This document shows, in pieces, positions 1,363-48,062 of a stretch of DNA of 48,062 nt. The stretch covers positions 1 through 48,062 of the forward strand of contig CAZQBZ010000001.1 of the NCBI GenBank assembly GCA_964592355.1. Direction: 5' to 3'. Under the pieces are notes generated by a model that ran no database searches, was not told where the DNA came from, and was given only the letters and a program-made list of their open reading frames with translations. The translations under genes were made by a program, and so were the position numbers. Position 1 is the stretch's first letter, and each line of letters opens with the position of its first letter. The DNA is from an uncultured Candidatus Saccharibacteria bacterium. Lineage in GTDB: Bacteria; Patescibacteriota; Minisyncoccia; Minisyncoccales; Staskawiczbacteraceae.

Positions 1363-2937
1363 ATGAAAACAGTTCTATTCGCCAGAGTTTCTTCGAGAGA
1401 ACAGGAGGAAACTGGCTACTCCTTGCCCTCCCAAGAAAAACTTCTCAAGGAATATGCCGAGAAAAAAGATTTTAAAATTGGTAAAAAGTTTTCAATTTCA
1501 GAATCGGCATCCGGCCGCTATCAAAGAAAATGTTTCGACGAAATGTTAGATTATGTCAAAAATAACGACATAAAAGTTATAATCTGCGAGAAAGTTGACC
1601 GTCTTACGAGAAATTTAAAAGACGCTGTTTTTATTAACGAGTGGTTGAATAACGATTCGGAGCGACAAGTACATTTTGTAAAAGAAAACTGCATCTTAAG
1701 TAGAGATTCTAAATCTAACGACAAATTTATTTGGAATATCAAAGTTTCAACTGCTCAATACTACATAGATAATCTTTCAGAAGAGGTTAAAAAGGGACAA
1801 AAAGAAAAATTGGCTCAAGGTTGGTTTCCTCAAAAATCTCCTCTTGGTTACAAAACAATGGGAGAAAAAGGCCACAAAATACATGTTGTCGACGAAGATA
1901 AATCTTTTTTAGTTAAAAAAATGTTCGAGTTGTATTCTAGCGGGAATTATTCTCTTAAAAAATTAGTTGAGAAAATGTTTGAGGAGGGATTGAGAACTAA
2001 TGGCGGAAATAAATTATGCAAAAGTAGACTAGCGACCTTGCTATCAGACCCTTTTTATATGGGAAAGATAAGGTGGAATGACGCAGTTTACAGTGGAAAA
2101 CACGAGGCGTTAGTTTCAGAAGAGATGTTCGAATTGGTACAAAGAACGTTAAAAGGCAAAAAGACTCCAAGATACACAAAACACTTATACCTTTTTAAAG
2201 GTTTTTTAAGGTGTAATGAATGCGGAGGACTCATAACATGGGAAAAGCATAAAGGAATCGTCTACGGGCATTGTAATCACTATAGGAGCTGTTCTCAAAC
2301 GACATGGATAAAAGAGCCAGAGGCGGAGAAACAAATCTCGCACTTGTTTGGGAATTTGCAGATAAAAAATCAAAAATTAATGGAGTGGATTAAGCAAGCT
2401 CTGAAAGAAAGCCATCAAGACGAAATTCAATATCATTCTTCTGCTTTGAAGGAATTAAATTTAAGACTAGGACAAATTCAAAAGCGCATAGATAATCTTT
2501 ACGACGACAAAGTTGACGAAAAAATTACAAAAGAATTTTATGAGTCAAAGTTTAAAAAGTATTCAGAAGAAAAAGAAACTGTTTTATCGTCAATTAAAAA
2601 ACATTCTGAGTCTAGTGATAAATATCACGAGATTGGTTTGAATATCTACGAACTCTCCCAAAAAGCACCGGAATTGTATCAAAGGGCGAGTATAGAGGAA
2701 AAACAGCAATTAATGAGATTAGTTTTTGAAAATCTATCCCTTATGGGAGAAAAAATAAATTATTCTTATGCTAAACCTTTTGATTTACTGGTCGAAGCCG
2801 TAAAAGCTACAAATAGTTCTAAAGTGCTTAATTCTAAAGAATTGCCAGCCAATATTTTCGAACCTTCAGATTTTCGAATAAAAACAAACAAAAACAGGGC
2901 TTTTGACCCTGAAATTGCTTCTCTGCTCCGGTGGTAG
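1363..2937 (+). CDS. large serine recombinase (resolvase/invertase N-domain + recombinase domain + zinc ribbon + coiled coil)
   Basis: N-terminus MKTVLFARVSSREQ..GYSLPSQ carries the catalytic Ser motif. Also present: VIICEKVDRLTRN, a Cys cluster CNECGG...GHCNHY..C and a long C-terminal coiled coil. 524 aa. Confidence 0.9.
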   Translation: MKTVLFARVSSREQEETGYSLPSQEKLLKEYAEKKDFKIGKKFSISESASGRYQRKCFDEMLDYVKNNDIKVIICEKVDRLTRNLKDAVFINEWLNNDSERQVHFVKENCILSRDSKSNDKFIWNIKVSTAQYYIDNLSEEVKKGQKEKLAQGWFPQKSPLGYKTMGEKGHKIHVVDEDKSFLVKKMFELYSSGNYSLKKLVEKMFEEGLRTNGGNKLCKSRLATLLSDPFYMGKIRWNDAVYSGKHEALVSEEMFELVQRTLKGKKTPRYTKHLYLFKGFLRCNECGGLITWEKHKGIVYGHCNHYRSCSQTTWIKEPEAEKQISHLFGNLQIKNQKLMEWIKQALKESHQDEIQYHSSALKELNLRLGQIQKRIDNLYDDKVDEKITKEFYESKFKKYSEEKETVLSSIKKHSESSDKYHEIGLNIYELSQKAPELYQRASIEEKQQLMRLVFENLSLMGEKINYSYAKPFDLLVEAVKATNSSKVLNSKELPANIFEPSDFRIKTNKNRAFDPEIASLLRW

Positions 2938-3191
2938 GATTCGAACCTACGACCCACTCCTTACACATTATCCTAAAATTGCTTCTAGGGGTGGACTATA
3001 TCATTGCCATATTCTTTCGAACTTAGGCACCTCGGTATCTAGTCTCTACGGCGCTCCTCCGCAATGCGGAGGTTCCCACGGTATTGCCCACGAGGGGTTT
3101 CACCGTTATCCCGAGATTATTCATCCCAAAATTTCTTTCGGGAGCTGCAAATTGTTTACAGGGAGTCGCTCTACCGCTGAGCTACACCGGA
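2926..3191 (-). tRNA. tRNA-Asn(GUU) gene interrupted by a 194-nt group I intron in the anticodon loop (exons 3191-3158 and 2963-2926)
   Basis: Minus-strand 5' exon: TCCGGTG TA GCTC AGCGGTA GAGC G ACTCC CTGT. Minus-strand 3' exon: TAA GGAGT GGGTC GTAGG TTCGAAT CCTAC CACCGGA G. All four stems pair perfectly. U1-A72 plus discriminator G73 and the joined loop CUGUUAA fit tRNA-Asn. No CCA is encoded. Confidence 0.8.
2964..3157 (-). ncRNA. group I intron (IC3-like, tRNA-anticodon-loop type), no internal ORF
   Basis: The RNA contains CCGUAGAGACUAGAUACCGAGGUGCCUAAGUUCGAAAGAAUAUGG. This closely resembles the conserved P7/P3/P8 core (GUAGAGACUAGA...CCUAAG...UAUGG) of the Azoarcus and cyanobacterial tRNA introns as I recall them. 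P1 can form as exon CUGU paired with intron GCAG, with a U.G wobble at the splice site. The intron ends in G (2964). Confidence 0.7.
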
Positions 3192-3283
3192 ATATATTTT
3201 TATGTTTTCATAATACCCAACTTTTATTTTTTTTTCAAGTGCCGTCATTTTTATTTTGTGATAAGATATGTTTAAGAAATAAA

Positions 3284-3625
3284 ATGTTTAAAAGGTTCAC
3301 AGTTAAAAAACGCGAGCAGGCAAGGAGTTTTGTGCTTGAAAGGCTGGCTTACTTTAATCAATTCTATGGTTTTAAAATAAATCGGGTTGCTATAAAAAAT
3401 ACTTATAGAAGGTGGGGGAGTTGCTCTTCAAAAGGGAATCTTAATTTTAATTACAAGATAATTTATTTAAAACCGGAATTGGCCGATTATCTAATTGTGC
3501 ACGAACTTTGCCATTTGGGAGAATTTAATCATTCGCCTAAATTTCATGCCTTGGTGGCAAGAACAATTCCGAATTATGTTATTATAAATAAAGAATTGAG
3601 AAAAACTTCGATAAAATTTATCTAA
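3284..3625 (+). CDS. DUF45/YgjP-like (M48 family) zinc metallohydrolase, short form
   Basis: HELCHLGEFNHSPKFHALVARTIPNY matches the HExxH...H.p.F signature of the YgjP/DUF45 family. The first ATG clear of the tRNA is at 3284. The ORF-track start at 2903 runs through the tRNA and is spurious. Confidence 0.7.
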   Translation: MFKRFTVKKREQARSFVLERLAYFNQFYGFKINRVAIKNTYRRWGSCSSKGNLNFNYKIIYLKPELADYLIVHELCHLGEFNHSPKFHALVARTIPNYVIINKELRKTSIKFI

Positions 3626-3654: not shown

Positions 3655-4401
3655 ATGCAATGCAAACTTTGTTTAGAGGATAGGGAATTATGTAAAAATT
3701 CGCACATAATCCCGAAGTTTATGTATAAGGAAATTTTTGATGAAAAACATACCTTAGTTAAAAGTAATGTTTTGGATTTTGATAAATTAGTTCAAGATGG
3801 CGAGAAAGAAGGAAATCTGCTATGTAAAAAATGCGATAATGAACTCATTGGTTCTTTTGAAAAATACGCGTCAGAAGTTTTATATGGGGGCAATATTCAG
3901 ACAAAGCAACTGTATTATAAAAAATCAGATGAATCAGATGAAGTTGAATATACTCGGGTAGAAGGATTAGATTATAGAAAATTTAAACTATTTCTTTTGT
4001 CTATATTATGGAGGGCTAGTATCTCAAGTAAAGATTTTTTTTCTTCAGTTTCACTCGGCAGATATGAAGAGAAATTAAGGCAAATGATTTTTACTCAAAA
4101 TGCTGGCGAAGAAGGGGATTTTCCTTGTGTTTTGATATCTTATAGAAAAAGAAATTTTCCTAAAATAATAAGGTCGCCCATCAAAAAAAGGACGCAAGAT
4201 AATAAAATAACATATGATTTTTTGATAAGCGCCCTATCTTACAGATTTAAGGTTTCAGAAAATGATTCCTCGGAGTACAAAAAATTAGCAATAAAGAGAA
4301 ATGGTGAATTATACGTATATCATCCATCAGAAGATTTGGCAAAAGAAAGATTGGAAAAAATGCTCGGAATAATCATTCCGGTCGGTATGAAATTTAATTA
4401 A
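3655..4401 (+). CDS. hypothetical Cys-rich protein (CxxC...SHIIPKF...CxxC), unknown family
   Basis: 248-aa ORF preceded by AGGAG (3642-3646). It has two CxxC pairs (CKLC, CKKC) and an LLSILWRAS motif. No confident family assignment. Confidence 0.6.
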   Translation: MQCKLCLEDRELCKNSHIIPKFMYKEIFDEKHTLVKSNVLDFDKLVQDGEKEGNLLCKKCDNELIGSFEKYASEVLYGGNIQTKQLYYKKSDESDEVEYTRVEGLDYRKFKLFLLSILWRASISSKDFFSSVSLGRYEEKLRQMIFTQNAGEEGDFPCVLISYRKRNFPKIIRSPIKKRTQDNKITYDFLISALSYRFKVSENDSSEYKKLAIKRNGELYVYHPSEDLAKERLEKMLGIIIPVGMKFN

Positions 4402-4429
4402 ATTTATAGTTTTGTGGTAAAATAAATCA

Positions 4430-4981
4430 ATGGAATTGGTAGGCATATCTGCTAGTCAAATTTTTTGGTCACTTTGGCCTCTATGGGCTGTTTTATTAGC
4501 AGTTCCTATATTTGAATTAATTACTCTTTGGATTCGCATAATTTTAAAAAAAAGGCGCATTCGTAGAAAATTTATAAAAGGTGGAGAATGGAGGTCGGAT
4601 AATGAGCTTTTACATTGGCTTCGTGAAATGAAGCCTTGGGAATTTGAAGAATATATTGCTTATTTATTCACGCAACTGGGTTACAAAGCTAAAGCAGTTG
4701 GCAAATCACATGATGGAGGCATTGATGTTGTCATTGAAAAAGATGGCGTTGAAAGCTATATCCAATGTAAAAAATTTATAACTTCTAGTGTGACTGTCAG
4801 CCAAGTCCGCGATTTTTAAGGTTCATTGGTTGATCATCTTGCCAAGGGAAAAGCATATTTTATTACTACTAATAAATTTACCTTAGAGGCGGAAAAATTC
4901 GTCGAAGATAAGCCGATTGAACTTGTGGACGGATTTAAATTGATTGAATACATCAAACTTAGCAAAAAACAGGCAAGATAA
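4430..4981 (+). pseudogene. membrane-anchored Mrr-type (Mrr_cat) restriction endonuclease interrupted by an in-frame TAA at 4817-4819
   Basis: An N-terminal TM segment is followed by WEFEEYIAYLFTQLGY...HDGGIDVVIEKDG..YIQCKK, the D...(D/E)xK nuclease core. After VRDF-TAA the same frame continues as GSLVDHLAKGKAYFITTNKFTLEAEKFVEDKPIELVDGFKLIEYI up to a TAA at 4979-4981. This is the expected rest of the domain. Confidence 0.75.
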
Positions 4982-5100
4982 TTAACCGGCCTGTTTTTAA
5001 TTGGCATAAAATAGATAGCTTATCCGGGTTAGGTCCATTGCAGAGAAGGGAAATATAATATAAGATAACGCATCTCGTTCTTTGATTTGAAAGGAGAATT

Positions 5101-5802
5101 GTGGTGCCGAAAAAAACCAAAAAGACCGATAAGAAGGTAAAAGCTCTGGTGGAAATTTATCTTAGCAGTATTGGCGAGGTGCCTCTGCTTAGCCTTGCCC
5201 AAGAAATCTGGCTGTCAAAGAGAATCGAGCTGGGCAGCAGTTGGGCCCGGCAATACCTTACCAAGGCAAACTTGCGGCTGGTGGTGTCGCGCGCAAAGCT
5301 TTATGTAAAGCGCTCGTTGAACCTCACCCTGTTGGGCCTGATACAAGAAGGCAACATCGGCTTAATGGGCGCTGTGGAAAAATACGACTGGCGGTACAAT
5401 TGCCGGTTTTCCACTTATGCTGTGCCTCGCATCGACAGGGCAATTGAGCGCGCATTGTTTTACGACAATCGCGGCAGTGTTGCCCATTTTTCAATGGACG
5501 AACCCATTGGCCAAGAGGGTGATGAAAGCATGCACGGCCTCGTGGGCGACCAAAAGGCGGTTTGCCCAAGCGCCAAAGCCAATCAAGTGTCTCTGCAAAA
5601 CATTTTTGATGAAGTTTTGCAGGAGCTTAAAGAAAAAGAGCAACAGGTAATCAGCCTTAGCTTCGGGCTTGGCAACGGAGTTGCTTACACAGACAAGGAA
5701 ATTGCCAGGATTCTTGGCACAACCAAGGAAAGGGTGCGCCAGATCAAGGCAAAGGCGCTTAGACGCCTGAAAAACCACGAACGCATTGCCGGACTCAAAT
5801 AG
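5101..5802 (+). CDS. sigma-70 family RNA polymerase sigma factor, divergent short paralog of RpoD
   Basis: [52 protein letters not shown] covers region 2. TDKEIARILGTTKERVRQIKAKALRRLK is the region 4 HTH. GTG start with AGGAG at 5092-5096. Visibly GC-richer than its neighbours. Confidence 0.85.
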   Translation: MVPKKTKKTDKKVKALVEIYLSSIGEVPLLSLAQEIWLSKRIELGSSWARQYLTKANLRLVVSRAKLYVKRSLNLTLLGLIQEGNIGLMGAVEKYDWRYNCRFSTYAVPRIDRAIERALFYDNRGSVAHFSMDEPIGQEGDESMHGLVGDQKAVCPSAKANQVSLQNIFDEVLQELKEKEQQVISLSFGLGNGVAYTDKEIARILGTTKERVRQIKAKALRRLKNHERIAGLK

Positions 5803-5814
5803 TTTGGCTATAGT

Positions 5815-5847
5815 CCCGCGAGTCGCCAAGGCGACCGCGGGTTTTTT
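5815..5847 (+). terminator. rho-independent terminator after the sigma gene
   Basis: CCCGCGAGTCGCC-AAG-GCGACCGCGGG followed by TTTTTT. Confidence 0.7.
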
Positions 5848-5931
5848 GATTGACATTTTACGCAATGCGTGGTAGGGTTTTATTAGAACCTTGGACAATT
5901 CCACACTTTCCACTATCATGGAGAACTAATC

Positions 5932-6615
5932 GTGAAAAGGATTATTGGCAGAGCGGTATTCATTCGCCACGGGGAAACCAAGTATACAAATGAGTTTCCC
6001 GATCTCACTGATGCAGGCAAGGAGACCATCAAACGCGCCGCTGTTGAGATTCGCAAAATCCACAACTTGCGCCCCGATCCCTTGCGCATCATGTCGTCGC
6101 CTGCCCCCAGAGCGTTGGGTACGGCGGCTATCATCTCGCAAATCATGGGCTATGACCAAAGAGTGATCAGAACTTCTTTGCTGTCACCGGCCGACGTGAG
6201 AGACGCAAGGCGCGGCGCTGAAATTTTCAACGAGCACGTTGGCAATGGCGGATTCCGCCAGTTGTCGGCCTGCTATGGATCTGATCAGCGCTACGAGGAT
6301 CCCGCCATCTTTGAACCGCGAACTCAGGTTGTCTCCAGATTTTACGATCATCTGGGTCAACTCGTTCGCAACTTGATGGCAGGCACCCGTCCGCTGTTTG
6401 TGGTGTGCGTGTCGCACTACGAGGTTTTGTACCACTTGGTGGAGACCTCGCTCAGCCTGGACTACGCCAAAGACCACCCGCTCACCTTTGGAGAAATGGC
6501 TTTGCTGTCGTTTTACGACATAGGCCCAGGCTCGACGGTGGAGGTGTGCCTGACTTTCCGCGACAGAAGCCGAAACATGGTTTTCGACTACAAGAAGAAT
6601 CTTGTTGCGCAATAG
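5932..6615 (+). CDS. histidine phosphatase family protein (phosphoglycerate mutase-like)
   Basis: N-terminal RHGET catalytic motif (AVFIRHGETKY) and a later VSHYEVL (His). GTG start with GGAGA 7 nt upstream. GC-rich. Confidence 0.8.
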   Translation: MKRIIGRAVFIRHGETKYTNEFPDLTDAGKETIKRAAVEIRKIHNLRPDPLRIMSSPAPRALGTAAIISQIMGYDQRVIRTSLLSPADVRDARRGAEIFNEHVGNGGFRQLSACYGSDQRYEDPAIFEPRTQVVSRFYDHLGQLVRNLMAGTRPLFVVCVSHYEVLYHLVETSLSLDYAKDHPLTFGEMALLSFYDIGPGSTVEVCLTFRDRSRNMVFDYKKNLVAQ

Positions 6616-17204: not shown

Positions 17205-18109
17205 TGTCAACATTATATACGCAAGCAGATTCAAACACGCGAAAAACCTGGTTCTTGTTAACTGGGTTTTTGGTCTTTATCATCGCCATTGGCTGGCTGT
17301 TCAGTTACGCCTTAAACGATACAACAATTCTGTATGTCGCTGTTTTTATAAGCATATTTTCAAGTTTTGGCAGCTATTGGTGGTCTGACAAAATTGTTCT
17401 GTCAATGTACAGGGCCAGCCCGATTGAGAAAAAAGACAACCCAGAGCTTTATCGTCTGGTTGAAAATTTGTGCATCACGGCAGGCCTGCCAGTGCCCAAA
17501 ATATATATTTTGCCCGAAGCCCAGCCCAATGCCTTTGCAACCGGACGCAATGCAAAACACGCCGTGGTTGCCGTTACCCAGGGGCTTTTACAAAGATTGG
17601 ATAAAACAGAGCTTCAAGGCGTTTTGGCGCATGAGCTTTCGCACATAGGCAACAAAGATATGCTGCTCAGCACAATCGTTGCGATTTTGGCGGGAGTAAT
17701 TGCGATATTGGCAAATATGTTTTTGAGAGTTGGCTCTTTTGGCGGGCATAGAAATTCTGACGATAACAAGGGAGGTGTGATATTTGTGGTTTTGGCAATC
17801 ATTGCCGCCATTCTGGCTCCGATTGCAGCCAGTATGGTACAACTGGCAATTTCTCGCAAGCGTGAATTTTTAGCAGATGCCGACGGGGCGCTTCTAACAA
17901 GGTATCCGGAGGGCCTGGCTTCTGCTCTTGAAAAAATTTCGCAAGACGCCACACCAATGAGGGTAAAAAATGAAGCAACGGCGAGTTTGTTTATTGATAA
18001 CCCCCACAAGGGAAAGCAAAAAACAAACTGGTTCGTAAAATTATTTATGACCCATCCGCCAATCGAAGAGCGCATCCAGGCCCTTCGCGGAATGGATGTT
18101 AATAATTAA
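17204..18109 (+). CDS. htpX: zinc metalloprotease HtpX (M48)
   Basis: HELSHIGNKD (HExxH), 4 TM segments, EFLADADGA and a THPPIEERI tail. Confidence 0.92.
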   Translation: MSTLYTQADSNTRKTWFLLTGFLVFIIAIGWLFSYALNDTTILYVAVFISIFSSFGSYWWSDKIVLSMYRASPIEKKDNPELYRLVENLCITAGLPVPKIYILPEAQPNAFATGRNAKHAVVAVTQGLLQRLDKTELQGVLAHELSHIGNKDMLLSTIVAILAGVIAILANMFLRVGSFGGHRNSDDNKGGVIFVVLAIIAAILAPIAASMVQLAISRKREFLADADGALLTRYPEGLASALEKISQDATPMRVKNEATASLFIDNPHKGKQKTNWFVKLFMTHPPIEERIQALRGMDVNN

Positions 18110-18119
18110 AATAATCATT

Positions 18120-18359
18120 ATGAATGATAAAAGAATTTATAGGGACGAGTTCAATAATATTATAAAAGAGCTTTTTCCTTTCAGCGACAAAGAAAGGGAT
18201 TATCTCAAGGCTATTTTTGACAAAGACCTCGTTGACGGCTTGACAGAATGGGAATTAAAAGACAAAGTAATAAAGATGCAGACAAATCAGACCGACGAAG
18301 TGGACACATACGAGGCTCAAAAGATAAAAAATAAGCTTTTAGGAAAGCTTGGCGGATAA
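18120..18359 (+). CDS. hypothetical small protein
   Basis: 79-aa ORF counted from the internal ATG. The alternative upstream start at 18096 overlaps the htpX end. No family recognised. Confidence 0.45.
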   Translation: MNDKRIYRDEFNNIIKELFPFSDKERDYLKAIFDKDLVDGLTEWELKDKVIKMQTNQTDEVDTYEAQKIKNKLLGKLGG

Positions 18360-18374
18360 CCGCTGATATACCCT

Positions 18375-18458
18375 GGAGAAGTCGCATAGCGGCTATTGCA
18401 ACGCCCTGGAAAGGCGTGCCCTTAACGGGGCCCGTGGGTTCGAGTCCCACCTTCTCCG
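18375..18458 (+). tRNA. tRNA-Ser(GGA)
   Basis: GGAGAAG/CTTCTCC acceptor stem, ACGCC-CTGGAAA-GGCGT anticodon arm (GGA), long variable arm, GTGGG-TTCGAGT-CCCAC T arm and discriminator G. No CCA is encoded. Confidence 0.85.
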
Positions 18459-18542
18459 CTTTTTAAAGCTTAATATAACCCATATCTGTTAAGGCAATCT
18501 GGACATTGTCCAGTTTTAGCGTAGACTAAAACTTGTATTAAC

Positions 18543-20096
18543 ATGTCTGGTAATAATCAAGAACAAATTATATCTCTTAGAAATTCATGCCTAGCAAATG
18601 CCGAAGCCTTATTGTCAATGGCCGAGAGAGAAATAGGCAAAGGAGTCGATCATGTGTGCTTTCATTTGGGTCTTTTGGCATTAGAAGAAATAGGAGAGGC
18701 TGTAATCGCCACCATAAATTATACTAACGATGTTGCAGGTAAGCGAAATGAGGATTTATATGCTGCAATGTATGATCACGTAAAGAAGGCGTTTTGGGCG
18801 ATATGGGGTGAAAGCGTTATTGACAGTCAGGGGCTTCTTAAAAAGAATTTAGAAGATAATATTCATCTCGCTACGACCCTTCACAAAAGGAGACTCGAAT
18901 CACTTTATACAAACCCAGATAATCCTCTTCCTTTAGATAAACGGGTTGAGGATAAGGAGTTAACCATGCTTATAAACCTTACAAGGGCTCGGTTAGAGTA
19001 TGAAAAAAGTAAGGAAATAAAACCATTAGATGAGGTTGATACCGAAATATTATTGTGGTATTTTAATGCTTTAGAAAATCCTGATATTAGGAAATATATA
19101 TTTAGTAAGCCATCATTGGATAAATTTGTAGAATTACAACAGGGCGGTGAATGGATAAAGTGGTTGCGGCAAGAATTTAAAAAGCATGAAGAGGAAATGC
19201 GTAAGCTTGCAAAGGAAGAAATTGAAAGACGAACACCCGAAGAAAAAGATGCTCTTAAACCAAAATATAAAATGCGAGTGCGAATACAAACACCATCTCA
19301 TTCTATTAGGAATGGCGCTTTCGCAAGTTGGAATTCCGGTATAGACAACATTAAATTGTACAAGTCGGACAAAAAGGGTGCAAAGAAGCTATCAAAGGGC
19401 GAGATAATAATTGATTTTACTTTTCCAAAAAAGTTGCTGGTTCAGGGTCTCTGGGAACACGGTCTCTACATGGCAAAGACGCTCATCGTTGCTCTTAATG
19501 TAGCCACACTCGGTGTTTTTTGGTGGAATGTGCAAAAAGATATTGAAAAATATTATGAAGAAATTTTAGACCTGGAACGAGATCCGAAGGGAGGAGTAAA
19601 GATTGGTATTGTTCCCCCAAAAAGGTTGAATGTTAATTTTGACCAAGGGATGTTTGTTCTTGACGATAAAGAAATGCAAAATGTAAATTACATGGCAGCT
19701 TACCTCCTTCGTAATTCCAAAAAGCTAGAGGAGTATTTGAAATCTTATGCAATGGCATTGACTCTTTTCAGTAAGACTGACATTCATCTGCGACTGGAAG
19801 TTAATGCGTTTGATGAGTTTTATAAAGCGTTAAAGCATGCCATGATAGCCTTAGGAGATTGGGATAGTAAGGCCGATTTTATGAATGCCGTTAAAAACAA
19901 GTTAAAGGAAGTAGGGGAACTAAAAGAAATCGATCGTACACTTCAGCTGGGAAAGATGTTGGACGAGGATGAAAAAAGAGAAAAATATCATCCTATTACA
20001 TTGACAGAAGTTATTGCTATGAAAGTGTACTGTGATTATTATGTACAGCTTAAGGCTCGTGATTATTTCAGAGAAGAAGAGAAAAAAGTCAGTTAG
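18543..20096 (+). CDS. large hypothetical protein with an N-terminal AbiV/HEPN-like domain (candidate abortive-infection/defence protein)
   Basis: 517 aa. The N-terminus CLANAEALLSMAEREIGKGVDHVCFHLGLLALEEIGEAVI resembles the AbiV-family pattern (NA..LL..A..L......A.fL..lA.EE.GKa) as I recall it. The remainder, including a charged coiled-coil segment, is unassigned. Confidence 0.45.
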   Translation: MSGNNQEQIISLRNSCLANAEALLSMAEREIGKGVDHVCFHLGLLALEEIGEAVIATINYTNDVAGKRNEDLYAAMYDHVKKAFWAIWGESVIDSQGLLKKNLEDNIHLATTLHKRRLESLYTNPDNPLPLDKRVEDKELTMLINLTRARLEYEKSKEIKPLDEVDTEILLWYFNALENPDIRKYIFSKPSLDKFVELQQGGEWIKWLRQEFKKHEEEMRKLAKEEIERRTPEEKDALKPKYKMRVRIQTPSHSIRNGAFASWNSGIDNIKLYKSDKKGAKKLSKGEIIIDFTFPKKLLVQGLWEHGLYMAKTLIVALNVATLGVFWWNVQKDIEKYYEEILDLERDPKGGVKIGIVPPKRLNVNFDQGMFVLDDKEMQNVNYMAAYLLRNSKKLEEYLKSYAMALTLFSKTDIHLRLEVNAFDEFYKALKHAMIALGDWDSKADFMNAVKNKLKEVGELKEIDRTLQLGKMLDEDEKREKYHPITLTEVIAMKVYCDYYVQLKARDYFREEEKKVS

Positions 20097-20192
20097 TTAG
20101 TTGCTTAATTGCTTTTATTGCTTCGCGAACGCTCTCTATGTAGGGAGTGTCTTGGAGGGTTATAATAAGCGTCGGGCGTGCCCGCTTGTATT

Positions 20193-20221
20193 AAAAAGCA
20201 TCCACAATGTGGATGCTTTTT
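20193..20221 (+). terminator. rho-independent terminator
   Basis: AAAAAGCATCCAC-AAT-GTGGATGCTTTTT: a perfect 9-bp stem followed by a T-run. Confidence 0.75.
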
Positions 20222-20342
20222 AATGAAAATTGGTGGGGCGAGAACCTCAAATCACTCCGTGTCGGAAAATATTAAAAACCGAGGGTTTTTAAAGCCGGGG
20301 GTCGGGGTGATTTGGAGGGGTTCTAGCGAGCCGTGGCGAGCG

Positions 20343-20360
20343 GAGTCCCACCTTCTCCGC
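20343..20360 (+). repeat. 18-nt direct repeat of the tRNA-Ser 3' end (att-like islet boundary)
   Basis: GAGTCCCACCTTCTCCGC is identical to 18441-18458, the 3' end of tRNA-Ser. Confidence 0.8.
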
Positions 20361-20563
20361 AAAATTAAATGCCCACGATAGGGCTTTTAATTTGCAGATA
20401 CCTGGTAGGAGGGTTGGTGAGGTAAAAAGGGTTCTTATAATTATTTTTACCCTATGTCGTCTCAGAATTTTTGTATATGTTGCCATGAACAGAGTTGCGT
20501 TGCCAGCGCGCGAAAAATCAAGACTCCTTGCAGAGATAAAATGGCCGGGTGTATTATAATAAT

Positions 20564-21529
20564 ATGAACAAATACCTACTATTAACTCTATTAATTATAT
20601 TATTCGTAATTATTTTTGCCTCGTTTCAATATTTTTATCCTGGGAGCCCGGAGAATATTAATTCTAAGAATTTTGAAATACTTGCTCATCGAGGCGCGCA
20701 TGTGATGTGGAAGCAGGGAGAATATGATTTGGCGACGGGATGCGAGGCAACCCATATTTATAAGCCGACAGAAGATCAAACATATATTGAAAACACTATT
20801 GAATCAATTAAGAAGGCGTTTGAGTTAGGAGCAACGATTGTCGAAATTGACATCAGATCAAGCAAGGATAATGTTTTAATGATAAGCCATGAAGAAAATT
20901 TGGAATGTAAAACGGATGGACATGGAAAGATTGGCGACTACACGGCAGATGAGCTTAAAAAACTTGATGTCGGTTATGGTTTCACTTATGACGATGGGCA
21001 GACATATCCATATAGAGGAAAAGGCATAGGGAAAATGCCAACTCTTCAAGAAGTTTTAAAAGAATTTCCCGATAAAAAATTTTTAATTGATCATAAGGAT
21101 CGCACTAAGGAAACGACCGATTTGCTGATTAGTGTATTAAAAGAACTTAAAGAAGAACAAAGACAAAAGATATTTTTTTGGAGCTCTAAAGAAATGGGGG
21201 ACTACTTGCAAAAAGAGGTTCCAGAAACAAAGCGCTTATTGGCTAATCGTTCGGAAATGAAATCTTGCATAATTAAATATGTTGCCAGTTTTGGCATATT
21301 AGGCTTTGGGGATGAATGCAGTGACTTGGCTATAGTAATGACTAAGCAATACTCTAAGTATATGTGGGGCTGGCCTTATAGCTTCATTAAAAAGGCCCAA
21401 GATAACAATAGCGCCGTGTTTTTAATGGCCGATACTGCAGAGGAAATTGAATGGGCGAAAAATTTGCCAGTTGACGGAGTAATAACAGATTATATTGAAT
21501 TAATTGCCCCTGCTTTTGGAAATAAATAA
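20564..21529 (+). CDS. glycerophosphodiester phosphodiesterase family protein, N-terminal membrane anchor
   Basis: ILAHRGAH...ENTIESIKKAFELGATIVEIDIRSSKDNVLMISHE is a GDPD signature. The ATG at 20564 is preferred over the GTG at 20549. Confidence 0.75.
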   Translation: MNKYLLLTLLIILFVIIFASFQYFYPGSPENINSKNFEILAHRGAHVMWKQGEYDLATGCEATHIYKPTEDQTYIENTIESIKKAFELGATIVEIDIRSSKDNVLMISHEENLECKTDGHGKIGDYTADELKKLDVGYGFTYDDGQTYPYRGKGIGKMPTLQEVLKEFPDKKFLIDHKDRTKETTDLLISVLKELKEEQRQKIFFWSSKEMGDYLQKEVPETKRLLANRSEMKSCIIKYVASFGILGFGDECSDLAIVMTKQYSKYMWGWPYSFIKKAQDNNSAVFLMADTAEEIEWAKNLPVDGVITDYIELIAPAFGNK

Positions 21530-47170: not shown

Positions 47171-47971
47171 ATGTTCGGACTAAATAAATCAACGCCAAAA
47201 TTTTGCAACTTATCGGGGAAAGTGGCAATTATAACAGGCGCAGCCAAGGGAATGGGCAGGGCTCATGCTTTGACTTTGGCCAAAGCCGGAGCAAAGGTTG
47301 TGGTAACTGATATTGATGTTGATGGAATTCAAAAGGTTGTTGAAGAAATTAAAAAAGAAAGAGGCGAGGCGATAAACATTAAGTGCGATCAGAGCCAAAA
47401 ATCAGATGTTGATAATGTTATAAGCCAAACCATGGGCAAATTTGGGAAAATAGACATTTTGGTGAATAATGCAGGAATTTTTCCCACAAAGCCATTTTTG
47501 GAAATGGAAGAAAGAGATTTTGAAAAAGTGATTGATGTAAATTTAAAAGGATATTTTTTAATGGCCCAGGCCGTTGCCAAAGAAATGCAAAAAAATAGCA
47601 AGAACGAGAAAGGGCAGAGAGGGGTGATTGTGAATATCGCATCTATTGCAGCCATGGTCGGATTTCAGGGGCTTTCGCATTATTGCGCCTCAAAAGGCGG
47701 AATTGTTGGAATGTCCAGGGCGATAGCGCTTGAATTGGCCCCCTTGGGCATACGCATAAATACAATCAATCCAGGGGCAATAGACACACCGGGCGCTTCC
47801 ATGAGCAATATTCCAGAAGAACAGAGAAAGGCAATAATGGCGCCAATCCCGATGAAAAGGCAGGCGGACGCCCAAGAAGTTGCCAATGCGGTTTTATTTT
47901 TAGTGTCGGACGAAGCTTCTTATATGACAGGGTCTGAGGTGGTTGTCGACGGAGGCTGGACCGCTGCGTAA
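47171..47971 (+). CDS. SDR family oxidoreductase (FabG-like)
   Basis: ITGAAKGMGRA (TGxxxGxG), NNAG and the YCASKGG (YxxxK) catalytic motif. Confidence 0.88.
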   Translation: MFGLNKSTPKFCNLSGKVAIITGAAKGMGRAHALTLAKAGAKVVVTDIDVDGIQKVVEEIKKERGEAINIKCDQSQKSDVDNVISQTMGKFGKIDILVNNAGIFPTKPFLEMEERDFEKVIDVNLKGYFLMAQAVAKEMQKNSKNEKGQRGVIVNIASIAAMVGFQGLSHYCASKGGIVGMSRAIALELAPLGIRINTINPGAIDTPGASMSNIPEEQRKAIMAPIPMKRQADAQEVANAVLFLVSDEASYMTGSEVVVDGGWTAA

Positions 47972-48062
47972 GCAGCGGGACAGGCGCCGCAGGAAGGGGT
48001 CGGGAGGGAGAGTTCCCTCCCGTGTAGGAAATTATTCAAAACCGAGGGTTTTGAAGGAGCGA

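Follow-up and report, generated by a model that had tools for sequence, protein, structure and literature searches.

A single-gene islet with a long AbiV-type HEPN protein at the 3′ end of tRNA-Ser(GGA) in a Patescibacteria genome

The end of tRNA-Ser(GGA) recurs a short distance downstream of the tRNA gene in the window (the whole 48,062-nucleotide stretch of DNA that was analyzed), and a single gene lies between the two copies. How did this gene come to be there, is the segment mobile, and is its 517 amino acid (aa) product, as the sequence-only reading proposed, a one-gene anti-phage system with a new architecture? The closest relatives of the host in public genomes carry the label Candidatus Staskawiczbacteria (Patescibacteria).

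The islet at the 3′ end of tRNA-Ser(GGA)

According to ARAGORN, tRNA-Ser(GGA) is the sole tRNA of the 48-kb window (Table 1). Its 18-nt end, GAGTCCCACCTTCTCCGC, occurs exactly twice in the window, and no match was found in 100 shuffles with up to 2 mismatches allowed. The second copy lies where the sequence-only reading had placed it, and the first is at 18442–18459, one nucleotide from the 18441–18458 given there. The repeat length is exact because the neighboring bases of the two copies differ on either side. Copy 1 spans the 3′ half of the T-loop, the T-stem, and the 3′ strand of the acceptor and extends one base beyond the discriminator. Between the two copies lie 1883 bp (1901 bp with one repeat copy included), which contain one 517-aa ORF, one terminator hairpin, and a structured end-module of ~110 nt. 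The ORF list confirms that there is one gene and no recombinase gene between the repeats, and base composition does not distinguish the islet from its flanks.

Two small hairpins occur in the 83-nt leader, where a promoter scan gave only a weak match (18500–18527, 9/12). No terminator separates the tRNA from the gene, and transcription from the tRNA promoter may thus continue into it. The strong terminator ascribed to the gene is indeed present as a perfect hairpin, which is absent from the list of a consensus terminator scan. Another hairpin (AAATTAAATGCCC/GGGCTTTTAATTT) occurs just 3′ of repeat copy 2; relatives have the same hairpin type directly 3′ of tRNA-Ser, and here it is probably the original terminator of the tRNA, displaced by the insertion. 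A 14-nt inverted repeat (18468–18481 and 20157–20170) was considered as a pair of terminal inverted repeats and rejected, as it is close to chance level in AT-rich DNA.

The order LemA-HtpX-tRNA-Ser(GGA) is kept in ~25 related Patescibacteria genomes, and the gene was found in none of the 80 related loci examined. On a contig from a related species (L097), tRNA-Ser is followed after ~100 nt by an orthologue (84% aa identity) of the GDPD gene that adjoins the islet downstream in the window, and this locus has neither the repeat nor the module. Because L097 has nothing comparable between tRNA-Ser and this downstream gene, we interpret the islet as an insertion. Relative to that species, 18460–20360 has very likely been inserted at the 3′ end of tRNA-Ser(GGA), and the synteny, the gene-free loci, and the L097 arrangement together bear out the original proposal of insertion at a tRNA 3′ end. 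Short copies of the tRNA end are common 90–200 nt 3′ of tRNA-Ser in relatives, which would suit a chance match or a local partial tRNA duplication without any insertion. An 18-mer match is unexpected by chance, the gene is missing from 80 of 80 related loci, and an empty arrangement exists in L097; these effectively refute that explanation, which we consider extremely improbable.

The content 3′ of tRNA-Ser varies in nearly every relative, and the cassette gene is patchy among close relatives. At the same tRNA, contig L019 carries a 1.97-kb, recombinase-less insert whose repeat is at least 26 nt long and whose cargo is different, encoding a leucine-rich-repeat protein. Within the sampled population the cassette is fixed: among the 13 contigs with identical HtpX, every one that extends far enough has the gene. 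The exact empty-site junction (tRNA end plus right flank) had 0 matches in metagenome contigs, and neither a same-strain empty site nor an excision junction was found among contigs with identical HtpX or metagenome contigs. The proposed comparison for an empty site was thus positive in the related species L097 and negative within the same strain population. The ends of the contigs with identical HtpX cluster 177–483 nt past the gene, which we attribute to assembly breaks at the repeated module rather than to variants.

Table 1. Features of the islet, its protein and the end-modules in the window, with homologue loci that have defense-gene neighbors
Feature	Position	Strand	Basis or content
tRNA-Ser(GGA), integration target, intact	18375..18459	+	ARAGORN; Rfam tRNA 53.6 bits; after HtpX also in ~25 relatives
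Direct repeat copy 1, attL-like	18442..18459	+	exact 18-mer, twice in window, 0 expected by chance
Leader between tRNA and ATG, 83 nt	18460..18542	+	sequence; fold -20.5 kcal/mol, z = -2.2; promoter scan
Gene for the 517-aa long AbiV protein	18543..20096	+	ORF list and translation; homologues; AF2 model mean pLDDT 90.8
AbiV-type HEPN domain, aa 9–127	18567..18923	+	PF18728; TIGR04498; profile match 9bj5/9bj7; Foldseek; conservation counts
Helical middle region, aa ~133–232	18939..19238	+	model secondary structure; alignment A1
Alpha/beta domain, aa ~233–365	19239..19637	+	C-terminal model pLDDT 85; Foldseek; conservation counts
C-terminal helical bundle, aa ~366–517	19638..20093	+	Foldseek 7ae6, 4nqf, prob ~0.5
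Terminator of cassette gene: perfect hairpin, 17-bp arms, A-run and T-run flanks	20190..20224	+	inverted repeat I1; fold -21.5 kcal/mol, z = -7.65
End-module copy A	20231..20342	+	blastn, nhmmer; covariance model R1 27 bits, E = 3e-4; fold -56 kcal/mol, z = -3.1
Direct repeat copy 2, attR-like	20343..20360	+	exact 18-mer match to tRNA-Ser end
Hairpin just 3′ of repeat copy 2	20362..20393	+	inverted repeat I6; fold -16.1 kcal/mol, z = -5.1
End-module copy B, cut by window end	47985..48062	+	blastn, nhmmer; covariance model R1 84 bits
Homologue locus L088			AbiEii and DpnI; also large serine recombinase
Homologue locus L090			OLD-type ATPase/TOPRIM
Homologue locus L092			N6/N4 methylase and ResIII helicase
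Homologue locus L093			DUF1156 and DUF499

The repeated end-module

The sequence-only reading saw in the repeat the classic signature of tRNA integration. This proved too simple, as repeat copy 2 is continuous with a repeated structured module that is gene-free in relatives and is also found at a non-tRNA target with a 20-nt repeat. In the islet, module copy A opens with GGTGGGGCGAGAACC, a degenerate version of the tRNA T-arm in inverted orientation, contains the conserved core GTGTCGGAAAATATTAAAAACCGAGGGTTTTTAA (as a pattern, GTGTAGGAAAWTATTMAAAACCGNGGGTTTT), and ends in GGGGTTCTAG...GGCGAGCG, directly abutting repeat copy 2. Copy B lies just 3′ of an enoyl-ACP-reductase-like gene (47171–47971); the full contig, L104, shows that an exact 20-nt direct repeat of the last codons of this gene lies on either side of copy B (GGAGGCTGGACCGCTGCGTA, at L104 4781–4800 and 4908–4927). 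The module is a repeated element, flanked at copy B by a repeat of its own target.

We found five copies of the module (four independent loci) in the ~1 Mb of sequence searched, with copy A the most divergent (27 bits versus 84–104 for the others with covariance model R1). The pairing of hairpin 1 is maintained by differing sequences in three copies. Two relatives (L016 and L026) have tRNA-Ser, the hairpin, the module, and the tRNA-end copy, and the gene is missing. Rfam searches identified only the tRNA in 18000–20800 and only noise around copy B, and searches of viral contigs returned nothing beyond 20-nt pattern matches. A MITE or IS-derived element was considered and rejected: on inspection, copy B ends without a terminal inverted repeat, and flanking repeats of 18–20 nt are longer than usual.

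Tyrosine recombinases are absent from the 48-kb window, which encodes a single recombinase, 15 kb from the islet and of the large serine class. Enzymes of this class normally leave very short repeats rather than 18-nt ones, so it is unlikely to be the integrase.

One possibility is that the islet is the decayed remnant of a larger island that entered by a tyrosine-integrase crossover in the tRNA 3′ end and later lost the integrase and its other genes. Its distal cargo gene would be left together with attR and the module, as the former P-arm of attP, and it would now be immobile. We consider this rather unlikely. A near-identical module core has a protein gene’s 3′ end as its target, flanked there by a 20-nt repeat of that site, and one classical integrase is not expected to use both cores. 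L016 and L026 would each have had to decay independently to one minimal structure (hairpin, module, repeat), which is unparsimonious, and a simple P-arm leaves unexplained why the module starts with an inverted target copy. In favor of decay, att sites of this kind usually have the form seen in the 18-nt repeat, which reaches from the T-loop to the end of the tRNA, the islet is fixed in all sampled contigs, and the identity between tRNA and copy in relatives narrows to the last 8–14 nt, which a crossover in the acceptor strand would predict. Old integrations have also left documented partial-tRNA remnants in other streamlined genomes (bioRxiv 10.1101/2020.12.28.424599).

A different history would involve two events, in which the module and the tRNA-end copy were resident and the AbiV gene with its terminator arrived later by homologous recombination using the flanks (hot-spot exchange). 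The repeat would then be uninformative about the arrival of the gene, because the gene would have entered between the tRNA and a pre-existing module. Such a history is consistent with the relatives that have the tRNA, hairpin, module, and repeat and are gene-free, with content 3′ of tRNA-Ser that differs in nearly all relatives, and with close homologues that travel with large serine recombinases, not with tRNA-linked elements. It appears quite improbable to us, since no donor locus with the gene between tRNA-Ser and the module was found, the divergent copy A is not obviously the resident module of L016 and L026, and L019 represents a second cargo-bearing, repeat-bounded insert at the same tRNA.

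The islet can be compared with several known systems. CIMEs keep attL and attR and have lost integration and transfer genes (PMC5704250). The islet is similarly without its own recombinase, contains cargo only, and has both repeat copies intact, and, as in a tRNA-integrated islet, the 18-nt exact repeat includes the 3′ end of the target tRNA and an empty site exists in L097. CIMEs are by definition derived from ICEs or IMEs by decay, typically with lengths of several kb, whereas the islet has a single gene in 1.9 kb and related elements measure only 0.1–0.2 kb; unlike in CIMEs, its end-module is common to two unrelated targets. No parent element with the module or att site was found, and the viral contigs are without the module. 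The islet also resembles the tycheposon islands of Prochlorococcus (bioRxiv 10.1101/2020.12.28.424599) in its streamlined genome, tRNA hot spot, and partial tRNA copies; the cargo of tycheposons includes defense genes, as may that of the islet. Tycheposons carry their own tyrosine recombinase, whereas the islet has no integrase or integrase fragment.

In structural terms only, the module can be compared with sites that recombine as folded single strands, such as integron attC sites and the attP(+) hairpin of the CTX phage, which uses the host XerCD. In the islet, an imperfect hairpin of ~100 nt ends a promoter-less, single-gene, recombinase-less unit, and its closing stem pairs the inverted with the direct target copy. 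Unlike integrons, the islet has no integron integrase, attI site, or GTTRRRY core sites; unlike attC sites, the module has a conserved sequence core; and unlike the target of CTX attP(+), that of the islet is not dif-like. We know of no counterpart in tRNA-linked islands for a module with an inverted target copy.

The long AbiV protein and its family

The N-terminus of the protein is a genuine AbiV-type HEPN domain, in line with the resemblance noticed by the sequence-only reading. Residues 9–127 match PF18728 (Pfam HEPN_AbiV; 31.3 bits, cut-off 27.1) and TIGR04498 (NCBIfam; 32 bits, cut-off 27), and there is a profile match of the domain to the lactococcal AbiV structures 9bj5 and 9bj7 (E = 0.01). 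Foldseek searches with the AF2 model identified the HEPN structures 3o10, 1ufb, 2hsb, and 1wol (prob 0.92–1.0, target TM 0.57–0.66), the first three of which are structural neighbors of AbiV according to Zhu et al. (bioRxiv 10.1101/2024.05.05.592566). The whole model matched in its HEPN domain only, apart from spurious membrane proteins. Conserved residues of the domain are E48/E49-x-G51, D78-H79-x-x-K82, and H114-x-x-R117-x4-Y122; conservation counts show H79, K82, R117, and Y122 to be invariant or nearly so.

Lactococcal AbiV (abiV1/abiV2; PDB 9BJ5–9BJ7) is a 201-aa HEPN RNase that degrades rRNA and is paired with an RNA antitoxin (bioRxiv 10.1101/2024.05.05.592566; PMC13064643). As in that protein, the N-terminal ~130 residues match the family HMMs and adopt the HEPN fold. 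The family motifs EExGK, DHxKK, and RxxxLY align with the solved structure, so that the two proteins have in common EExGK (dimer-interface residues in the AbiV crystal structure), the His-x-x-Lys segment, and R-x-x-x-L-Y; in the alignment to 9bj5/9bj7, H93 and K96 correspond to the invariant H79 and K82. Unlike in lactococcal AbiV, the Arg and second His of 91-RNHKSKH-97 are unconserved. R91 aligns with Y77, where 71 of 80 family members have D or E, and H97 has no counterpart. A check for HEPN Rx4-6H catalytic residues therefore came out negative at the lactococcal position, and aa 1–130 contain no R-x4-6-H pattern. RNase activity is not assured, because the arginine of this motif is not conserved and the second His is missing. 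The protein further differs from the ~200-aa single-domain AbiV in its 517 aa with three further conserved regions. No antitoxin RNA or small ORF was identified upstream, where the 83-nt leader has its two small hairpins (z = -2.2).

The remainder of the protein was said to match nothing recognized, and this held up in profile and structure searches: the ~390-residue extension has no convincing match in Pfam, PADLOC, PHROGs, BFVD, or Foldseek, and beyond HEPN_AbiV the Pfam search gave only a sub-threshold match to DUF4286. The middle region includes a long charged helix (201–227) in which W204 is invariant. In the alpha/beta domain K241 is nearly invariant, and other marked features there are an S252-H253-S-I-R256 turn, G324-x-F-W-W, and D343; those of the helical bundle are Y402, K411-x-D413-x-H415, and K494. 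For the C-terminal Foldseek search we modeled aa 228–517 separately; the alpha/beta fold appears weakly ferredoxin-like or PII-like (7r32, 3bpd, 2x3d, prob 0.8–0.9), with all matches of the search at E ≥ 0.05. There are weak structural hints of a HEPN toxin in the C-terminal bundle, but a tandem HEPN arrangement was rejected, as hhalign of the N- against the C-terminal profile gave a probability of 0.2%. R247-x5-H253 was also rejected as a HEPN motif; it fits the Rx4-6H pattern, but it is at a beta-hairpin site and position 247 is R or K.

The architecture is not new. The full-length layout of ~500–530 aa is that of a large existing family of at least 264 clusters (50% identity), already labeled “AbiV family”. 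Homologues include 135 word-indexed sequences and 581 representative clusters, nearly all full length. The ~390 extra residues are conserved across this long family, which is present in Patescibacteria, archaea, and large-genome bacteria, and a single viral contig encodes a relative (31% identity). The protein was not called by PADLOC, as none of the PADLOC-DB 2.0 models matched it at E ≤ 10, and PHROGs and BFVD gave nothing for it.

Four of 10 sampled homologue loci have defense-gene neighbors, a raw count from a small sample (Table 1). Large serine recombinases also occur at 4 of the 10 (L087, L088, L094, and L096), and elements that carry close homologues also encode large serine recombinases and TrwB or T4SS pilins. 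No tRNA-end repeats were found around the ten homologues, and upstream they have no consistent partner or spacing in common.

A proposed cassette and its cargo

Our best reading of the whole, which we think has an even chance of being correct, is a non-autonomous, CIME-like cassette that carries a one-gene candidate for abortive infection and is fixed in the population sampled. The cassette would be a member of a family of non-autonomous integrative mini-elements comparable to CIMEs, with the end-module as their recombination arm. A recombinase encoded elsewhere may have inserted it, with a crossover within the last ~8–18 nt of the tRNA, and an excised circle would join ...GGCGAGCG + GAGTCCCACCTTCTCCGC + TTTTTAAAGCTTAATA. 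Mobilization of the cassette in trans is a tentative suggestion. Transcripts that start at the tRNA promoter probably read through into the cargo gene and end at the cassette’s own hairpin.

The protein may be a stand-alone effector of the abortive-infection type, and we consider a defense role moderately likely. By analogy with the rRNA-degrading lactococcal AbiV, the N-terminal HEPN domain could be an RNA-cleaving toxin module, a mechanism that we rate at slightly less than even. The extension (helical linker, alpha/beta domain, helical bundle) may be a built-in sensor or auto-inhibitor, which would replace the separate RNA antitoxin required by the short lactococcal AbiV.

Many HEPN proteins are not nucleases. 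With an unconserved canonical Rx4-6H arginine, no matches to defense models in PADLOC, and a gene that is fixed in a housekeeping neighborhood here, the protein could have no anti-phage role: it might be a toxin module that is selfish or serves addiction, or its function might be regulatory or in RNA processing, on a shared AbiV-type HEPN scaffold that has no nuclease activity. The near-invariant H79, K82, R117, and Y122 argue instead for an active site. Restriction, Abi, or OLD-type genes at 4 of 10 homologue loci, recombinases at 4 of 10, and the patchy distribution among close relatives also count against a role outside defense, which we judge unlikely.

If long AbiV is a single-polypeptide abortive-infection system, it would be a HEPN toxin controlled by fused domains, not by an RNA antitoxin, and would add a widespread system that current defense-finding models miss. 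The confident structure model and the few invariant residues make it directly testable. The end-module may matter more than the protein. On a more speculative view, which we think improbable, it would define a new class of small non-autonomous integrative elements in Patescibacteria, in which the inverted and direct target copies of each element pair as a hairpin that mimics the duplex target, a host-encoded recombinase inserts the element at gene 3′ ends in the manner of the CTX-phage attP hairpin or integron attC sites, and read-through from the target gene expresses single promoter-less cargo genes such as that of long AbiV. The genomes of Patescibacteria are tiny, with few recognized mobile elements. 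If this view is right, recombinase-less cassettes that target gene 3′ ends (five copies at four independent loci) would be a new route of gene flow in Patescibacteria, and would provide these mobile-element-poor organisms with a cassette system for defense genes.

The tRNA-Ser insertion

The sequence GAGTCCCACCTTCTCCGC occurs exactly twice in the window (18442-18459 and 20343-20360) and spans the end of tRNA-Ser(GGA) from the T-loop to one base beyond the discriminator. The bases beside the two copies differ on either side, which fixes the repeat length at exactly 18 nt. The sequence-only reading had described this repeat correctly, with its first coordinate pair (18441-18458) one base too low. 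A chance match is effectively excluded: 0 of 100 shuffles matched with two mismatches permitted. The ORF list and translation confirm one long gene between the copies, and the strong terminator proposed after it is present as a hairpin followed by a T-run (see table). A consensus terminator scan of 18000-20700 called no terminator despite this hairpin, probably because its long AT-rich outer stem lies outside the scan rules. A 14-nt inverted repeat with one arm a few bases past the left repeat copy, on the islet side, and the other shortly ahead of the terminator (18468-18481 and 20157-20170, 13/14 complementary) is at about chance level in AT-rich DNA.

Relatives were gathered by an HtpX scan with one genome per species, which yielded Patescibacteria MAGs; most of the nearest ones, at 77-81% identity, carry the label Candidatus Staskawiczbacteria. 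The order LemA-HtpX-tRNA-Ser(GGA) is kept in about 25 closest relatives, and a homologue of the 517-aa gene occurs within 6 kb in 0 of 80 related loci. In the metagenome contig L097, whose source is a related organism with an 84% identical GDPD protein, tRNA-Ser(GGA) is followed by GDPD about 100 nt on, and there is no repeat. A virtual empty site (18460-20360 deleted) aligns to L097 across the tRNA and the GDPD start. The empty arrangement in L097 and the gene's absence from the related loci bear out the proposed insertion at the tRNA 3′ end. Locus comparison establishes it at the level of related species, and at that level only, not as present-day mobility. An empty site was thus found in a relative, as the earlier proposal had envisaged; metagenome contigs gave no match to the exact empty junction. 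The islet is fixed within the strain population, with the AbiV gene in 13/13 identical-HtpX contigs wherever these are long enough (at least 9 samples). The hairpin right after the second repeat copy is of a type that relatives carry directly 3′ of tRNA-Ser, and is probably the tRNA's displaced terminator.

Features of the window and of related loci
Feature	Position	Strand	Remarks
Large serine recombinase, 524 aa	1363-2937		Resolvase, Recombinase and zinc-ribbon domains
YgjP-like metallopeptidase	2903-3625		next after large serine recombinase
Upstream flank			housekeeping: ATP synthase subunits, zinc-ribbon protein, LemA, HtpX, small ORF
tRNA-Ser(GGA)	18375-18459	+	sole tRNA in window (ARAGORN); Rfam 53.6 bits
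Long ORF, 517 aa	18543-20096		only long ORF between repeat copies
Hairpin, perfect 17-bp arms, flanking A and T runs	20190-20224		-21.5 kcal/mol, z = -7.65
Hairpin right after repeat copy 2	20362-20393		z = -5.1
Downstream flank			housekeeping: GDPD-family phosphodiesterase, pgsA, SIMPL proteins
Module copy B	47985 to window end (48062); L104 4802-4927		directly 3′ of enoyl-ACP-reductase-like gene
Module-bearing locus in L016	7594-7811		tRNA-Ser(GGA), terminator hairpin, module, tRNA 3′-end copy; without AbiV gene or coding cargo
Module-bearing locus in L026	2176-2376		arrangement as in L016; no protein-coding cargo
Short GC-rich hairpin-forming inserts 3′ of tRNA-Ser(GGA)	L020 7704-7793; L023 7790-7915; L035 1989-2168; L059 3700-3820; L065 10551-10667
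Insert in L019, 1.97 kb	4279-6335		at same tRNA; recombinase-less

A repeated end-module

The approximately 110 nt between the terminator and the second repeat copy (copy A, 20231-20342) share a core, (G)GGGTCGG-hairpin-CCGTGTAGGAAAWTATTMAAAACCGNGGGTTTTKAAGGAGCGAG...GCGAC, with three other places: copy B in the window and one locus each in two related species (L016 and L026). Run over about 1 Mb of sequence, a covariance model based on three copies picks up all five instances and nothing else convincing. Copy A diverges most (27 bits, E = 3e-4), and the pairing of hairpin 1 is kept across three copies despite their differing sequences. The module has no match in Rfam and is absent from viral contigs. 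Islet-bearing metagenome contigs (L003-L006, L125-L129) stop repeatedly 177-483 nt past the gene, at points within or close to the module and repeat, which fits assembly breaks at repeated sequence.

The module begins with an inverted copy of its target, so its closing stem pairs the inverted with the direct target copy. T-arm bases agree at 18/20 positions in L026, 16/20 in L016, and 15/20 in L035; the inverted copy in the window matches at about 12/15 by eye, and that at the protein-gene target is GCAGCGG. The last codons of the upstream gene appear on both sides of copy B as an exact 20-nt direct repeat (4781-4800 and 4908-4927 in L104, the full contig holding this copy). Across the stop codon, the end of that gene pairs with the beginning of the module in a 7-bp hairpin whose loop is GTAA. 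It is improbable, in our estimate, that Patescibacteria have in this module a new hairpin-mimic cassette system directed at gene 3′ ends.

The tRNA-end signature does reflect a real insertion; the repeat belongs to the module-bearing element family and not to the AbiV gene as such. A less likely alternative invokes two separate events, a resident module and a gene added later by homologous exchange; L016 and L026 have the module without the gene.

The short inserts in five relatives are 90-200 nt long, and each closes with 12-19 nt copied from the tRNA 3′ end. Several are unlike the module in sequence; L035 carries its inverted T-arm copy. The insert in L019, a related genome, encodes a 268-aa leucine-rich-repeat protein (4837-5643), and the repeat that bounds it, at least 26 nt long, runs beyond the tRNA end. 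These inserts identify the tRNA-Ser(GGA) 3′ end as a recurrent insertion site in the clade. The tRNA-end copies in L026 (2356-2376) and L035 (2150-2170) include CCA, which the resident tRNA gene does not encode, and those in L026, L035, L020, and L023 depart from the resident tRNA in the T-stem or acceptor, at one or two positions. This suggests that the copies derive from another lineage or from mature tRNA.

A long form of AbiV

Residues 9-127 clear the curated cut-off of Pfam HEPN_AbiV (31.3 vs 27.1 bits), and the N-terminal domain clears that of NCBIfam AbiV_defense (32 vs 27 bits). The long-AbiV family profile matches the lactococcal AbiV structures 9BJ5 and 9BJ7 (E = 0.01). A confident AlphaFold2 model of the protein (80 homologues, mean pLDDT 90.8) matches at its N-terminus the HEPN structures 3O10, 1UFB, 2HSB, and 1WOL (prob 0.92-1.0), the first three being reported structural neighbours of lactococcal AbiV (bioRxiv 10.1101/2024.05.05.592566). 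The suspected AbiV-type HEPN N-terminus is upheld by these cut-offs and structures.

The lactococcal AbiV protein, a HEPN RNase, degrades rRNA and requires an upstream RNA antitoxin; its catalytic motif is given as 91-RNHKSKH-97 (bioRxiv 10.1101/2024.05.05.592566; PMC13064643). In the alignment, its H93 and K96 correspond to invariant H79 and K82. The catalytic Rx4-6H pattern that was to be looked for is lacking at this position, because R91 aligns to Y77 (Asp/Glu in 71/80 family members) and H97 has no counterpart. Across the long-AbiV family, H79, K82, H114, R117, and Y122 vary hardly or not at all. The 517-aa protein differs from characterised AbiV in two defining features, size and the Rx4-6H arginine.

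The other approximately 390 residues fall into three parts: the first is helical and includes a long charged helix, the second is an alpha/beta domain whose Ser-His-Ser-Ile-Arg turn is almost invariant, and the last is a helical bundle at the C-terminus. These residues are as unmatched as first reported, with no above-threshold Pfam match and nothing in PHROGs, BFVD, or PADLOC, the last of which had been suggested for recognizing a defence system. Comparison with PDB folds gives weak hints, all at E of at least 0.05, of a ferredoxin-like or PII-like fold and perhaps of a second HEPN-like bundle. When the N- and C-terminal regions are compared profile to profile, no relation is found. The segment R-I-Q-T-P-S-H-S-I-R (19281-19310, aa 247-256) fits the Rx4-6H pattern; within the alpha/beta domain, it is part of a beta-hairpin. 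The family keeps S252, H253, and R256 almost without exception, and this may be a second functional site.

A word-indexed search found 135 relatives, nearly all of 505-535 aa with 95-99% query coverage. Many already bear the name "AbiV family abortive infection protein" (NCBI or JGI); Minisyncoccia, Nomurabacteria, and a Nitrosotalea archaeon are among the named hosts. An exhaustive search of 50%-identity representatives gave 581 clusters at E <= 1e-3 and 264 at E <= 1e-30, with matches again over the full length. Given these clusters and names, the architecture is not new, contrary to the earlier claim; sequence similarity places the protein in a long form of the AbiV family that already exists. 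Some relatives (P0077, P0083, P0089-P0095, P0099, P0102) have extra N-terminal domains (PF16277, HTH PF13744/PF13443, alpha/beta-hydrolase PF00326/PF00561), which could be alternative sensor or effector modules.

Known defence genes adjoin 4/10 inspected homologue loci (AbiEii and DpnI; OLD-type ATPase/TOPRIM; N6/N4 methylase and ResIII helicase; DUF1156 and DUF499). Large serine recombinases also adjoin 4/10, two of these with TrwB-like or T4SS-pilin genes as well. A tRNA-end repeat occurs at 0/10, and among viral contigs just one has a gene for a distant relative. In this small sample of ten loci, the neighbourhood pattern fits a mobile defence gene. The rival view, a non-defence role, has beside it the empty PADLOC result and, on the other side, these defence neighbours.

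Recombinases and the proposed cassette

The islet lacks a recombinase, as originally noted, and no tyrosine recombinase occurs among window ORFs of about 230 aa or more. The large serine recombinase in the window is 27% identical to the one beside the long-AbiV gene in L096, a homologue locus, and may point to a further mobile element at the left end of the window. Large serine recombinases normally leave very short repeats only, so we do not propose it as the islet integrase. A less likely rival is a classical integrase island that has fully decayed; the cargo-free module copies at the same tRNA in relatives speak against it.

Our preferred reading is a non-autonomous, CIME-like cassette (CIME as defined in PMC5704250). 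A recombinase acting in trans would insert it, and the module would be its recombination arm. The AbiV-type HEPN domain would be the effector of a stand-alone candidate abortive-infection protein, in which the fused 390 residues would stand in for the RNA antitoxin as sensor or inhibitor. We give this reading, taken whole, an even chance of being right. The main points of interest are a testable long-AbiV protein family and the end-module.
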